Shown here in pieces: positions 1-7,118 of a stretch of 64,000 nt of DNA; positions within the stretch are counted from its first letter, which is position 1; every line of letters begins with the position of its first letter. The notes below the pieces were generated by a model. That model made no database searches. It saw only the letters and a list, made by a program, of their open reading frames with translations, and was not told where the DNA came from. Location: positions 1-64,000 of IMG/VR virus record IMGVR_UViG_3300033072_000683. One strand, 5' to 3'. The DNA comes from a virus. Taxonomy: Duplodnaviria; Caudoviricetes. The translations under genes were made by a program, and so were the position numbers.

Positions 1-165
1 AGAAGATCGCCGCACGAAGAAGATTACGAATTCGACGATGTTGACGCACACGATCCAACGCGTCGTGTAAGACACTTTAAGAAGGATCGGGATGAAGATA
101 ATAAAAAGCGTTGGGAACGCGAAAGCTATTTTGATAGCGATAACGATTACGACGAGCGCAGATAA
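1..165 (+). CDS. C-terminal end of an acidic/basic hypothetical protein (5'-truncated by window edge)
   Basis: Frame 1 open from base 1 to TAA 163-165 (RRSPHEEDYEFDDVDAH...YDERR*). Confidence 0.6.
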   Translation, partial: RRSPHEEDYEFDDVDAHDPTRRVRHFKKDRDEDNKKRWERESYFDSDNDYDERR

Positions 166-168
166 ATA
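161..168 (+). promoter_or_regulatory. T4-like late promoter GATAAATA upstream of tRNA-Ser
   Basis: Same octamer precedes most structural genes in the window. Confidence 0.55.
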
Positions 169-175
169 GCATAAA

Positions 176-268
176 GGAAGGTTAACTGGACAGGCGCGCC
201 AGACCTGCCTCGAAAACAGGTTGTGTTACTAACCGTAGCATGGGGATCGAGACCTCAGCCTTCCGCCA
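176..268 (+). tRNA. tRNA-Ser(CGA), non-canonical 8/4 cloverleaf with long variable arm
   Basis: Acceptor GGAAGGTT/AGCCTTCC, G73 + encoded CCA, D-stem CTGG/CCAG, anticodon loop CT-CGA-AA, variable arm GTGTTAC/GTAGCAT, T-stem GGGG/CCTC with loop ATCGAGA. Confidence 0.8.
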
Positions 269-273
269 GAATT

Positions 274-501
274 ATGAGATTATCAGAAATTGATCTAATT
301 GGAAAACCATCGCCTAAGTTTGATGAAATTCAAACTAAGCATGGTATTGGGTACAAAGATCTGATGGTCCAACTCTCGAAGGGTATTAAAGTCGAACTAG
401 AACATACCGGTGATATTGCGATGGCAAGGGAGATTGCTCTCGACCATCTTGATGAATTTCCGGATTATTATGATCGGCTAGAAAAAGTCGAGCAAAAATA
501 A
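274..501 (+). CDS. Small phage protein, DUF5661-like (GIKVELEH...IALDHLDEFPDYY)
   Basis: Recognisable motif; start moved to ATG 274 because 223-268 lies inside the tRNA. Confidence 0.7.
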   Translation: MRLSEIDLIGKPSPKFDEIQTKHGIGYKDLMVQLSKGIKVELEHTGDIAMAREIALDHLDEFPDYYDRLEKVEQK

Positions 502-506
502 ATCCT

Positions 507-581
507 GTCCCTGTAGTTCAATGGACAGAATAGTCCTCTCCTAAAGGATAGATACAGGTTCGATTCCTGTCAGGGGCACCA
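507..581 (+). tRNA. tRNA-Arg(CCT)
   Basis: GTCCCTG/CAGGGGC acceptor, D-arm GTTCAATGGACAGAAT, anticodon loop CT-CCT-AA, T-arm ACAGG-TTCGATT-CCTGT, encoded CCA. Confidence 0.95.
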
Positions 582-584
582 AAT

Positions 585-896
585 ATGGAAACAGTTCTAG
601 TCAGACAAATCCAAATCCCGATGACGCAGGTGTTGCCCTTTGAGGCAATGATGCGCACAAATGGCATCGGTGTGAAAATTATCTACGGGCAAAAGAATGC
701 CACAGTAGAATTTTACAACGATGCTGATTACCTAGCCTTCATTTTGAAGGATCTGCTAGGAAAAGCAAAAGAAGAATCCGGTATGTGTCATCTAACACAA
801 CCGGATTTTGATTTTATGATTCGCCTTGAAAAGAAGCTCAAAACTTATAGCAAGGGCGACGAATACTATATTAGAAAGGCGTTGAAAGGAAAGTAG
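585..896 (+). CDS. Hypothetical protein
   Basis: 103-aa ORF directly after tRNA-Arg. Confidence 0.65.
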   Translation: METVLVRQIQIPMTQVLPFEAMMRTNGIGVKIIYGQKNATVEFYNDADYLAFILKDLLGKAKEESGMCHLTQPDFDFMIRLEKKLKTYSKGDEYYIRKALKGK

Positions 897-1058
897 ATGA
901 CTCTTACACTTTTCTTACTTGTTTTCTTCTTCATTTTCCCACTTGTATCTATTCTAATGTCGGATAGATATTACGGTAGCAATAAAGCGAAGGCGTTTGC
1001 CATTGTTCTCTTTACAAGTCGGGTTGGTCGTATTTGGCTCTGGTGCCAAGAAAAATAA
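897..1058 (+). CDS. Small hydrophobic (membrane) protein, 53 aa, below ORF-track cutoff
   Basis: ATG immediately after upstream TAG; MTLTLFLLVFFFIFPLVSILM...WLWCQEK*. Confidence 0.55.
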   Translation: MTLTLFLLVFFFIFPLVSILMSDRYYGSNKAKAFAIVLFTSRVGRIWLWCQEK

Positions 1059-1079
1059 AGGACCCGAAGGTCCTTTATT
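1054..1079. terminator. Bidirectional intrinsic terminator
   Basis: AATAAAGGACC-CGAA-GGTCCTTTATT between convergent genes. Confidence 0.8.
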
Positions 1080-1095
1080 CTTAAGACGTAAATTC

Positions 1096-1476
1096 TTACG
1101 CTAGGTTTAGATCAGCTTGTCCAAGAGCGACAGCAGGTTGTGTCGACCAGGAATAGCTATTGATGGAACCATCAGCTTCCCAAAGATCGAGACGGAACTG
1201 AGCAATCTTCTTGCAAGGTCTTGCAGAACCACCAAAAGGTGTTGCTGTGATAAAGCACTGACCTGGTTGCAAAGAACCAACTGCTAGAGCATTTACCATA
1301 AAGACAATTTCCGACTTAGTGCCGTTACTTACTACATATGCAGCAGATCCTGTCTGCTTCACAATGTATGCATTTGTATCAGTGGAACCATCTGCCCACT
1401 TTACGCCATCAACTACGATCTGATTGCCACCAAGTGCAGCAGGACCAAACCACTTTTTCTGAATAGGTCTTCCCAT
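1096..1476 (-). CDS. Late, probably virion-associated hypothetical protein (MGRPIQKKWFG...)
   Basis: 126-aa ORF with AGGAG SD and GATAAATA on the minus strand at 1529-1536. Confidence 0.75.
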   Translation of the reverse strand: MGRPIQKKWFGPAALGGNQIVVDGVKWADGSTDTNAYIVKQTGSAAYVVSNGTKSEIVFMVNALAVGSLQPGQCFITATPFGGSARPCKKIAQFRLDLWEADGSINSYSWSTQPAVALGQADLNLA

Positions 1477-1528
1477 TTTGGGCCTCTCCTTTACTCAAAT
1501 TATGTGGAACCATTTCCTCATAACTCAC

Positions 1529-1536
1529 TATTTATC
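1529..1536 (-). promoter_or_regulatory. Late promoter GATAAATA
   Basis: tatttatc on + strand. Confidence 0.6.
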
Positions 1537-1545
1537 TAAAACCTG

Positions 1546-1574
1546 TTGACTGCACCTATATAGACGTGCATAAT
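1546..1574 (+). promoter_or_regulatory. sigma70-type early promoter of rIIA
   Basis: TTGACT-N17-CATAAT. Confidence 0.7.
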
Positions 1575-1607
1575 AAAAGAACCTTCTAACACAGAAAGAC
1601 AAAACAC

Positions 1608-3746
1608 ATGAAGCTTGGAGTTGACGTTAACGAAGTAACCCTGTCAGGGGTGGGTGCGACTGGGGAGTTCCGCATCCGTAATTCTGCTAAGGCCTTTAAG
1701 ATTCTGTCCGATGGCCTTTATTCGAACAAAATCCGCGCAATCATTCGTGAGCTGTCCTGCAATGCTGTAGACAGTCACGTTGCCGCAGGTAAGCCCGATG
1801 TGCCCTTTGAGGTTCATCTTCCTACTATCCTTGAACCCTACTTTGCGGTAAAGGATTTTGGACTCGGCCTGAGCGGTGATCAAGTCACCAATATCTACAC
1901 AACCTACTTTGAATCCACAAAGACTGATTCCAATGACTACATTGGCGCGCTGGGCCTGGGTTCGAAGTCTCCTTTCTCCTACACGGAAAACTTCACGGTA
2001 ACTGCTATCAAGGATGGCATTAAGCGCATTTATAGTGCGTTCATTAATGAATCCGGTGTTCCTTGTGTTGCTGAGATGAGCACCGAACTTACCGATGAAG
2101 CAAACGGTGTTGAGGTTAAGTTCTCGGTAACCAACCGACACGATTACAACAGCTTCCGTCATGAGGCGCAGGAAGTTTTCAAATGGTTCAAGCATCAGCC
2201 TGTTATCACCGGTGTTGATAACTTCAAGGTACAACCGGCTGAATTTAAGGAACGAGATATTGTTCCTGGTGTTCACACTATGGGTGGCTTTAATGAATAT
2301 TACGGTGCGCATTCTATTGCGATCATGGGTAATATTGCATATCCGTTGAACAAGATTCCGGAACCTGCCAAGCATTTTGGCAATCTTGCTGCACTACTTG
2401 AGTGTGGGCTGGTATTGGAATTCCAAATTGGCGAGCTTGATTTTGCTGCATCGCGTGAGGAACTGAGTTACATTCCGCAGACTCTTGCAAGTATCAAGAA
2501 TAAACTGCAATTGCTGAATGCTAACCTGACCAAGCACCTTGCAGAAAAGGCTGACAAGATCGAGAACGAGTGGGAACGTGCCATTTATCTGGTTGAGCAA
2601 TATCAGACTCGTCTTTATAAGAGTGCAGTTCCGAAATATGTTGCTGACACGAAGTTTGCACTTTTCAACCCGAATCAGCATTACGGCCGCCACGAGTTTG
2701 AATTTACCGATGAACAGCTGAAAGAGCACAACCTTGAGCTTGTTGCATTTCGCGCAAGCCACGGATCTACCAGCAAGATGACGGTAATGCACCAGCGTTA
2801 CAATAAGCAAAGCAAGCTCGAGACGGTCGGTATAATCACGGTTCAGCCGGGTGTTGTATTTGTTCTGAACGACTTGAAGACTGGTTGCCAGGCACGGGCA
2901 CGTTATCACTTTGCACAAGCCGGCAAGAATGTAACGGTTTACTGTGTTTCGTCTGCATCCGAGCTTGATGCACGTCAGCCCGACTACGATTGGTTTATCA
3001 AAGAGATTCATAATCCCCCGGTGATTATGAAGGCTTCTGAGTTAGATAAGCCGATCAAGAAGAAGCCCACCACTTCGCAAGGTCTTATGTATATGAGACT
3101 GAAGATGGATAGACGACAAGGGTACGAGGATTCGTATTGCTGGGCACCTTATACCGAGGAGCTTGACGACAATGTGGAATATGCCTACGTCAACCTGAGC
3201 AATTATCAGGCGGTCTCGAAAGATGGCACTGCCGCCTTCAATGTGCATCGCCTGAAATCGTGGATCGATGATTCCGGCGTCAAGGCTCTTACCGATATCA
3301 AGATCATTGGTGTTCGTAAGAACAGAGTTGAAGAAATTGAAGGTCTGGACAATTGGGTCTGGCTCGAAGACAAGATCCGTAAGGAAATTGCCAAGATCAA
3401 CGACGCTCAAGTTATCCAGATGGTTTCGGCTGAGATGCTTGACAATTACAACGACAGAATCTATACTAATGATTCAGTTGCAAAGGCAGTTGGGCCTGAT
3501 TCTCCGTATGCACAATATGTGAAAAAATACGGAAAAGCTAACCGAACTGGCAATGTTGCAGCATTGGTACAGCTCTGCGCCGAATATGGCAAGTCCGTCC
3601 AGGTCGACGCAGTGAAGAAAGAAATTTCGGACGCAAAGAAAGCAATTGTTAGCCGCTATCCTTTGATTAAGCATGTTCATCATGCTAATGAGAATGATGT
3701 GGCGCATTACATTAAACTTGTAGACACTCAACAGGAGAAAAACTAA
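1608..3746 (+). CDS. rIIA: rIIA-like protein with N-terminal GHKL/HSP90-type ATPase domain
   Basis: IRELSCNAVDS, VKDFGLGL, GALGLGSKS motifs; directly followed by rIIB. Confidence 0.9.
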   Translation: MKLGVDVNEVTLSGVGATGEFRIRNSAKAFKILSDGLYSNKIRAIIRELSCNAVDSHVAAGKPDVPFEVHLPTILEPYFAVKDFGLGLSGDQVTNIYTTYFESTKTDSNDYIGALGLGSKSPFSYTENFTVTAIKDGIKRIYSAFINESGVPCVAEMSTELTDEANGVEVKFSVTNRHDYNSFRHEAQEVFKWFKHQPVITGVDNFKVQPAEFKERDIVPGVHTMGGFNEYYGAHSIAIMGNIAYPLNKIPEPAKHFGNLAALLECGLVLEFQIGELDFAASREELSYIPQTLASIKNKLQLLNANLTKHLAEKADKIENEWERAIYLVEQYQTRLYKSAVPKYVADTKFALFNPNQHYGRHEFEFTDEQLKEHNLELVAFRASHGSTSKMTVMHQRYNKQSKLETVGIITVQPGVVFVLNDLKTGCQARARYHFAQAGKNVTVYCVSSASELDARQPDYDWFIKEIHNPPVIMKASELDKPIKKKPTTSQGLMYMRLKMDRRQGYEDSYCWAPYTEELDDNVEYAYVNLSNYQAVSKDGTAAFNVHRLKSWIDDSGVKALTDIKIIGVRKNRVEEIEGLDNWVWLEDKIRKEIAKINDAQVIQMVSAEMLDNYNDRIYTNDSVAKAVGPDSPYAQYVKKYGKANRTGNVAALVQLCAEYGKSVQVDAVKKEISDAKKAIVSRYPLIKHVHHANENDVAHYIKLVDTQQEKN

Positions 3747-4745
3747 ATGAGCAAGCCGATCCCGTATCTGCTTCAGGGTAAGAACATTATCCTGGTTATT
3801 GATGGTAAGAGTCACACCATCAGCCGCGATACTCACATCGCGTATGTGAAGATCGTTGACGCCCTTAAGGCGCAAGATTGGGACGCTCTGCGCGACCTAG
3901 TTGAGCCGAAGAAGGCGATCGTGAACTTTGGTAAGGGCTTTGTGTCGATTAACGACAACAAGGTCATGTGGAAGGGCAAGCCATTCCACAATGCATTGGC
4001 AAACCGCATGATCGAGATGTTCCAAGATGGCTTCCCGATTGACCCGATGGTACGCTTCATGGAAAACCTGATGCAGAACCCGTCCAAGCGTTCTGTGGAC
4101 CAGGTGTACGGCTTCTTGGAAAAGAACAAGTTGCCGATCACCGAGGATGGTTACTTCCTGGCGTACAAGAAGGTTCGCACCGACTATAAGGACATCCATA
4201 GCGGCACTATCAGCAATCACATTGGTGCTGTTGTCGAGATGGATCGAAACCTTGTCGACGACAATCCTGATTCGCATTGTTCTGTTGGCCTGCACTTCTG
4301 CAGCGAAAGCTATCTGGGCCACTTCGGTGGTGGTGGCGATCCGGTGATGATCCTGAAGATCAATCCGGCTGATGTTGTGAGCATTCCGACTGACTATAAT
4401 GGTGCCAAAGGTCGTTGCTGCAAGTATGAAGTCGTTGGACAAGTGAACGGCAACCCTGCCGAGGCATTTGCCAAGATTGTCAACACTGAGCATTCGAAGC
4501 CCGTTGCACCGGTGAAGAAGTTGGAACCTACCGCTGCATGGCCTTTCCCGACCGGTGAAGAAGCTGCCGCTACCGTCACCGAAGACGATGATCAGTTGTA
4601 CGACCTGGTCCGTGTGCATGGCGAATGGACTGAGTTCTACGACATGACGCTTGCTGAAGCTCGTGCCAAGGTTCAGAAGAATCTTGAGCAGAAGAAGGCG
4701 AAGCTGAAGATCGTTAAGGCCGGTACGGACGAAGAAGTCCAGTAA
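3747..4745 (+). CDS. rIIB: rIIB-like protein
   Basis: PITEDGYFLAYKKV, CSVGLHFCS, KINPADVVSIPTDYNGAKGRCCKYEV motifs. Confidence 0.92.
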   Translation: MSKPIPYLLQGKNIILVIDGKSHTISRDTHIAYVKIVDALKAQDWDALRDLVEPKKAIVNFGKGFVSINDNKVMWKGKPFHNALANRMIEMFQDGFPIDPMVRFMENLMQNPSKRSVDQVYGFLEKNKLPITEDGYFLAYKKVRTDYKDIHSGTISNHIGAVVEMDRNLVDDNPDSHCSVGLHFCSESYLGHFGGGGDPVMILKINPADVVSIPTDYNGAKGRCCKYEVVGQVNGNPAEAFAKIVNTEHSKPVAPVKKLEPTAAWPFPTGEEAAATVTEDDDQLYDLVRVHGEWTEFYDMTLAEARAKVQKNLEQKKAKLKIVKAGTDEEVQ

Positions 4746-7110: not shown

Positions 7111-7118
7111 GATAAATA
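7111..7118 (+). promoter_or_regulatory. Late promoter GATAAATA
   Basis: Octamer match in intergenic region. Confidence 0.6.

Follow-up and report, generated by a model that had tools for sequence, protein, structure and literature searches.

Serine tRNAs whose acceptor branch is divided into 8 bp of acceptor stem and 4 bp of T-stem, written (8/4), are known from bacteriophages. Mukai et al. (2017) reported them and, in the main text of that paper, grouped them with the (8/4) allo-tRNAs (PMC5389517). The first examples of Mukai et al. were false positives of a search for tRNA-Sec, and tRNAs of the 8/4 and 9/3 types with serine identity were shown there to be charged and used in translation in Escherichia coli (PMC5389517). 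A review of these molecules states that SerRS accepts both the 8/4 and the 9/3 acceptor branches (PMC7609411).

The gene considered here occupies positions 176-268 of a 64,000-nucleotide stretch of viral DNA, which is referred to below as the window. A preliminary description of this stretch had proposed a non-canonical tRNA-Ser(CGA) of the 8/4 type and had cited Mukai et al. for such genes in phages; the citation is accurate, as the main text of that paper does report phage (8/4) tRNA-Ser (PMC5389517). The analysis presented below, which is built on the comparison of sequences, indicates that 176-268 is very likely an intact serine tRNA gene reading UCG, folded as an 8/4 cloverleaf and belonging to a large, mostly phage-borne lineage.

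Genomic context

The window covers positions 1-64,000 of an 82,750-bp IMG/VR viral contig, for which CheckV gives a completeness of ~21%. It encodes rIIA (1608-3746) and rIIB (3747-4745), and its positions 1-3000 found no match among the GenBank phages by megablast. The contigs of sibling loci reach 364-369 kb, and the source contig therefore represents part of the genome of a very large T4-like phage. The twelve closest loci (L001-L012, called siblings below) share the same gene order, in which a tRNA array is followed by the tRNA-Ser element, an ORF of the DUF5661 family and a tRNA-Arg(CCU). The DUF5661 ORF starts 5 nt past the CCA of the tRNA-Ser and ends 5 nt before the tRNA-Arg(CCU). It has many relatives on viral contigs; the homologues align from residue 1, and the synteny is kept.

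Neither a sigma-70-like promoter nor a terminator was found between the tRNA-Ser, the DUF5661 ORF and the tRNA-Arg(CCU). The three therefore likely form one transcript, and the DUF5661 ORF is probably carried on the same RNA as the tRNA-Ser. The ribosome-binding site of DUF5661 overlaps the tRNA's 3′ end in the siblings, so that 3′ processing of the tRNA would leave the DUF5661 mRNA nearly leaderless.

Table 1. Features at the start of the window, with positions counted from its first nucleotide.
Feature	Positions	Strand	Details
Upstream ORF	1-165		TAA stop 163-165
GATAAATA, T4-type late-promoter-like motif	161-168	+	7 nt between its end and the tRNA 5′ end
Acceptor stem, 5′ strand, 8 nt, GGAAGGTT	176-183	+	Pairs with 257-264
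Connector AA, acceptor stem to D-stem	184-185	+	First A at least 90% conserved in the family
D-arm	186-202	+	Stem CTGG 186-189 / CCAG 199-202; loop 190-198 with GG 193-194
Position 26 (A203)	203	+	Single base ahead of the anticodon stem
Anticodon arm	204-220	+	Stem CCTGC 204-208 / ACAGG 216-220, C208.A216 mismatch; loop CTCGAAA
Long variable arm	223-241	+	7-bp stem 223-229/235-241, loop 230-234 (MFE fold)
T-arm	242-256	+	4-bp stem GGGG 242-245 / CCTC 253-256, one G.U; loop ATCGAGA 246-252
Acceptor stem, 3′ strand, 8 nt, AGCCTTCC	257-264	+	Pairs with 176-183
Discriminator G73 (G265) and encoded CCA (266-268)	265-268	+	
DUF5661 ORF, 75 aa	274-501	+	PF18905, E = 1.5e-15
Canonical tRNA-Arg(CCU)	507-581	+	ARAGORN; Rfam 64.2 bits; same position in siblings

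Architecture and fold energy

The elements of an 8/4 tRNA-Ser listed in the preliminary description, together with the upstream motif, are all present base for base at the coordinates of Table 1. The eighth pair of the acceptor stem is T183-A257 (alignment column pair 8:87), which is preceded by a T182.G258 wobble. The anticodon CGA at 211-213 reads UCG, a serine codon. The D-arm contains four contiguous pairs and a 9-nt loop, with A.G at the fifth position, whereas most relatives have a D-stem of 5-6 bp. T241 and G223 form a G.U pair closing the variable arm. In the T-loop, A is found at both position 54 and position 60. This combination recalls the eukaryotic initiator tRNA.

Eight acceptor pairs and four T-stem pairs still add up to a coaxial acceptor/T helix of 12 bp. 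Such a 12-bp helix has the length expected by EF-Tu, RNase P, the CCA enzyme and the ribosome.

The minimum free energy (MFE) fold of 176-268 is exactly the 8/4 cloverleaf, in which A203 pairs with T221 and C208.A216 is opened. The partition function of the window sequence alone gives P(8:65) = 0.68 vs P(49:65) = 0.08, and P(G223:T241) = 0.83. The fold energy lies within chance when set against shuffles (z = -1.38), and the 8/4 fold is better than the 7/5 fold by only 1.4 kcal/mol. These two values led to the rejection of thermodynamics as an arbiter between the registers, and the fold therefore rests on comparative evidence, namely homology and covariation.

The small energy cost is one of the points in favor of an ordinary 7/5 tRNA-Ser. 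In such a molecule T183 would be the unpaired U8, T241-A257 would be the fifth pair of the T-stem, and three nucleotides would link the acceptor and D-stems. U is the canonical residue at tRNA position 8, and both U8-A65 and U49-A65 can form in the window. The same ambiguity is present in 35 other members of the family described below, so the register of the window gene has to be assigned by the family.

Covariation within the family

The family was collected from a viral collection by the T-arm GGGGATCGAKACCTC, disregarding the acceptor sequence and the anticodon. The 5′ ends were located by acceptor pairs 1-7 only, and neither 8:65 nor 49:65 was used in the selection. Among the matches listed, this yielded at least 78 distinct phage tRNA-Ser genes with the T-arm GGGG-ATCGAKA-CCTC; the matches listed are part of those in the collection, and the family is therefore larger than sampled. 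Twelve instances were left out: one mis-parsed Ser(GGA), one 7/5 tRNA-Trp and ten non-tRNA chance matches. All 78 members listed carry a serine anticodon (TGA 29, CGA 26, GCT 15, GGA 8). By these assignments, the mostly phage-borne 8/4 lineage covers all four serine anticodon types. Position 73 is G in 69/78 and U in 6/78 of the members listed, and CCA is encoded in 48/78.

The pairing of position 65 discriminates between the two registers. The 8:65 pair is formed in 76 of the 77 distinct sequences among the matches listed, in four Watson-Crick types and one wobble (UA 36, GC 18, AU 16, CG 5, UG 1). The preliminary description had called for covariation at the eighth acceptor pair in homologues, and this is what the family displays. 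It had also named the alternative outcome, in which homologues would conserve T241-A257 rather than T183-A257; the equivalent 49:65 pair fails in 35 of the 77 listed sequences (U.C or U.U) and is formed in 42, of which 36 have U-A. Those 36 sequences are compatible with the 7/5 fold, but the 35 that cannot pair 49:65 are not. Over half of the listed members have A, G or C at position 8, unlike the conserved U8 of the 7/5 fold. Position 49 is an almost invariant U. Its partner is an invariant G, with which it closes the base of the variable arm as a G.U pair (columns 48:71, in 70-71 of the 77-78 members listed). Taken with these counts, the 7/5 register is a very doubtful reading of the window gene, and the 8/4 cloverleaf is preferred.

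The remaining stems of the 8/4 cloverleaf are maintained in a similar way. Across the family alignment 94.6% of the cells are paired, vs 72% in shuffles, and compensatory changes occur at 16 of 21 pairs; the sequences are related, so these counts are not independent events, and the T-stem does not vary in the main alignment because the T-arm was the basis of selection. The four D-stem pairs are formed in 98.7% of the cells of the listed family, each with compensatory changes, and the stem is extended by a fifth pair in 69/77 and a sixth in 56/77 of the listed sequences. RNAalifold, which was supplied with no structure, returned stems of 8 bp for the acceptor, 4 bp for the T-arm and up to 6 bp for the D-arm, with U49 closing the variable arm. 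A 26:44 pair, which would lengthen the anticodon stem to 6 bp, is formed in only 27/77 of the listed members and is unsupported. Conservation reaches at least 90% at U33 and A37-A38, the elbow residues G18-G19 / U55-C56 are also conserved, and the window holds all of the nearly invariant residues of the family. As such, the family is a clean natural source of covariation data on the 8/4 register.

The T-loop itself does not define the register. The sole other tRNA with this T-arm among the matches listed is a canonical 7/5 tRNA-Trp(CCA) (L237, ~1930-2030), which has the A54 T-loop ATCGATA and a 5-bp T-stem, GGGGG/CCTCC. The unusual T-loop therefore also occurs outside the 8/4 register. A second set of genes, chosen by the acceptor start and the anticodon, had diverse T-arms and contained 66 tRNA-Ser(CGA) genes among the matches listed. 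In 24 of these, 8:65 is a Watson-Crick pair and 49:65 is unpairable, and 9 of the 66 have the opposite, canonical pattern.

Most of the listed family members directly precede or follow ordinary tRNAs in phage arrays. The model built from the family scores the window gene at 78.8 bits, the window being among the model-building sequences, and matches nowhere else on the 82.7-kb contig. A search of bacterial and archaeal contigs with the T-arm 15-mer, for which thousands of chance matches are expected, listed 120 matches, none of which parses as a tRNA; they are chance occurrences in GC-rich coding DNA. The comparison shows only that the 8/4 tRNA-Ser type is enriched in phages, and its absence from bacteria is not implied.

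A sub-lineage with the anticodon stem ACCGC/GCGAA is recognizable in the genes with GCT in L208, L231, L235, L260 and L298 and with TGA in L239 and L245:9799-9879. This stem has three Watson-Crick pairs only, with A.A and C.A outermost, and is conserved across several contigs. Other RNA genes accompany the family on the contigs of relatives. Bacterial class A RNase P RNA (RF00010) was found at L209:340-627 (-) and L245:5521-5849 (-), with 166.9 and 146.8 bits, within tRNA arrays where 8/4 tRNA-Ser genes occur as well. Provided that the two contigs are truly viral, their phages carry an RNase P RNA of their own. A permuted tmRNA (RF04321, 72.6 bits) is located at L294:4941-5170 (-), on a viral contig with two 8/4 tRNA-Ser genes.

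Recognition by standard tRNA finders

It had been suggested that a tRNA of this shape may be missed by standard finders, and this proved to be the case. ARAGORN made no call at 176-268 and reported only the tRNA-Arg(CCU) at 507-581. Rfam at gathering thresholds likewise left 176-268 uncalled and reported the tRNA-Arg(CCU), and neither RF00005 (29-bit gathering threshold) nor RF01852 (47-bit) matched 176-268 at E <= 10 in a 601-nt search. The same behavior is seen in the listed family. ARAGORN called 9 of the 78 members, and for 5 of the 9 it placed the start 3 nt too far in. The Rfam tRNA model recognized 0 of 20 members in 12 loci, one of which was called as tRNA-Sec with 47.9 bits vs the threshold of 47. 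The miss by RF00005 reflects on the model and does not speak against function as a tRNA.

Should other pipelines overlook such genes about as often, phage tRNA censuses and analyses of codon supply would undercount serine tRNAs, and reports that a phage lacks tRNA-Ser would also be affected. The main practical value of the finding is this annotation warning; the gene itself is ordinary phage cargo, and its unusual shape is already published.

Variation at the same site in the siblings

Copies 79-83% identical to the window tRNA-Ser are present in L003, L004, L005, L007 and L008, and none of them is called by ARAGORN. They carry compensatory changes, with G-C, U-A, C-G or A-U as the fourth D-stem pair. 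The siblings cannot decide the fold, because position 65 can pair with either position 8 or position 49 there. The C.A mismatch of the anticodon stem is also found in the siblings L001, L003, L005 and L007.

A differently built tRNA-Ser(CGA) occupies the same site in L001, L002, L010, L011 and L012, where ARAGORN calls it, and in L009, where it is uncalled. Examples are found at L001:2904-2993, L009:2904-2992, L010:2906-2991 and L012:2903-2992. The genes of these four loci, here class A, have a TTCGATT T-loop, a very small D-loop, A8, U65, and G or A at position 49; they are compatible with both the 8/4 and the 7/5 register. Rfam made no call of this type in the three loci scanned (L001, L010 and L012). 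The presence of a differently built gene at the same locus indicates that the tRNA-Ser gene has been swapped between near-identical phage backbones.

In L006, within the ~50 nt that precede the DUF5661 start at 3001, only an acceptor-strand hairpin is found (GGAAGATTAA ... TTAATCTTCC), with a perfect TATAAATA 7 nt upstream. This hairpin is either the remnant of a tRNA deletion or a minihelix. As L006 keeps only such a remnant, the tRNA-Ser gene can be lost.

Loss in a sibling raises the question of decay in the window, where the gene might be a pseudogene surviving from a tRNA array at the end of the contig. That neither ARAGORN nor Rfam calls the gene is consistent with decay, as are the hairpin of L006 and the A.G of the window D-stem at a position where relatives pair. 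However, the stems are intact save for one C.A, which is common to siblings, all nearly invariant residues are present, and the gene scores 78.8 bits with the family model cited above, of which it is one of the building sequences. The compensatory changes in the siblings also preserve the D-stem. Decay of the window gene is thus extremely improbable, and an intact 8/4 tRNA-Ser gene remains the preferred reading.

Transcription from a predicted late promoter

Late promoters of T4-like phages have a short conserved sequence, which is TATAAATA in T4 and KVP40 and NATAAATA in cyanomyoviruses (PMC2984593). The preliminary description had placed the tRNA-Ser under a late promoter, and the statistics of GATAAATA agree with this prediction from sequence. 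The window contains 18 copies vs 3.0 expected, a number reached in 0 of 100 shuffles. Sixteen of the 18 lie on the gene strand, and they are mostly intergenic, 18-50 nt ahead of an ATG; coding sequence makes up 92% of the window. Sites are found, e.g., at 7111, 9116, 12183, 15535, 22391, 32799, 41107, 41779 and 44492, and the motif is often followed by G/C, a pyrimidine and an ATAA-like stretch. The copies of GATAAATA probably mark a set of late transcription units across the window.

The resemblance to the T4-like late promoters includes the 8-mer length, the ATAAATA core, the over-representation, the gene strand and the intergenic position shortly before start codons. The difference is the first base, which is G in 18 of the 22 cores.

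The placement of the motif next to the tRNA-Ser is shared by L001, L003, L005, L007, L012 and L295, which have the same motif at the same 7-nt spacing with a spacer of varying sequence. The motif overlaps the TAA stop of the upstream ORF, so a part of its conservation is explicable by coding, which does not account for the bases that follow the stop. Eight of the 78 listed members, in this lineage only, have a late-promoter motif directly upstream. Adjacency of the motif as a general feature of the family was therefore rejected on these counts; most members directly follow another tRNA. On the strength of the motif, the tRNA-Ser, the DUF5661 ORF and the tRNA-Arg(CCU) would be transcribed from a late-type GATAAATA promoter, and the tRNA-Ser(CGA) would add UCG-decoding capacity during infection.

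Possible roles in infection

A working serine tRNA that decodes UCG would be the most economical reading of the gene. The TCG codon is not rare in the phage, making up 17% of its serine codons and 10 per 1000 codons overall. Based on crude gene calls, its share is 20.4% in 13 motif-adjacent genes vs 16.2% in 64 others, a difference that is not significant (p = 0.13). A dedicated late supply of TCG decoding is unsupported by this codon usage.

A second kind of role concerns the defense systems of the host. The nuclease of the type I-A retron depletes all E. coli tRNA-Ser species and cuts the tRNA-Ser of phage T5 (PMC12475279). With such tRNA-Ser-depleting defenses known, the family makes a concrete candidate for the question of whether nuclease sensitivity depends on tRNA architecture. 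The anticodon loop of the window gene is that of ordinary 7/5 phage tRNA-Ser(CGA) genes, so nothing points to the evasion of anticodon nucleases.

The existence of these nucleases also bears on a reading in which the RNA is tRNA-shaped but does not decode. It would then serve as a nuclease decoy, or as a processing signal releasing the DUF5661 mRNA and the tRNA-Arg, for which the ORF only 5 nt away is suggestive. The rejection by standard tRNA models, the unusual T-loop (A54, A60) and the C.A mismatch beside the anticodon loop are in keeping with such an RNA. A decoy or a signal, however, needs no match between anticodon and identity, and a serine anticodon together with serine identity marks is found in every listed 8/4 member. 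The conservation of U33, A37 and G18-G19 / U55-C56, the encoded CCA and the location of members inside ordinary tRNA arrays argue for decoding as well. In addition, the 8/4 tRNAs that were tested translate in E. coli, according to the main text of Mukai et al. (PMC5389517). A non-decoding function is consequently quite unlikely, and the UCG-decoding tRNA-Ser is retained.

In a broader proposal, the 8/4 register and the A54...A60 T-loop may together constitute a phage-propagated, partly host-independent serine tRNA design, which might escape host enzymes such as defense nucleases directed at tRNA-Ser (like the type I-A retron HNH) or T-loop modification. Since the late-promoter motif is fixed 7 nt upstream in this lineage, the tRNA might also be transcribed nearly or entirely without a 5′ leader and would then hardly need RNase P to mature. 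The proposal is considered improbable.

Comparison with described tRNA families

The first family for comparison is the canonical class II tRNA-Ser with the 7/5 branch, exemplified by the phage tRNA-Ser(CGA) of L104, L105 and L142. The window gene shares with it the anticodon loop (CTCGAAA/TTCGAAA), the GGAAGRT acceptor start, the long variable arm, G73, the GG of the D-loop and the 12-bp acceptor/T stack. It differs in that the register is shifted by one, with position 8 paired, a T-stem of 4 bp and U49 placed in the variable arm. Moreover, the window gene has A for T at position 54 and is not recognized by RF00005.

Bacterial tRNA-Sec (8/5, RF01852) resembles the window gene in its 8-bp acceptor stem, long variable arm and serylation-type identity, and in the lengthened D-stem that is present in many relatives of the window gene. 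In contrast, the acceptor branch of the window gene is 12 bp (8/4) and not 13 bp (8/5), and its anticodon is CGA vs UCA in tRNA-Sec.

The closest match is the (8/4) tRNA-Ser of Mukai et al., as described in the main text of that paper (PMC5389517). The features that define this type are present in the predicted structure of 176-268, namely the 12-bp branch split 8/4, the long variable arm, G73 and the serine anticodon. Both occur in phage tRNA gene clusters, and most relatives of the window gene have a lengthened D-stem. The likeness to tRNA-Sec also goes far enough for one family member to score as RF01852. Two secondary features depart from that description. The window D-arm has 4 bp and a 9-nt loop, not the long stem with a tetraloop, and the lengthened anticodon stem of the allo-tRNAs in general has no supported counterpart here (26:44, see above). 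The A54...A60 T-loop (ATCGAKA) has no mention in the main text of PMC5389517. The 8/4 shape is thus already published, and the gene is a further phage example of the Mukai-type (8/4) tRNA-Ser.
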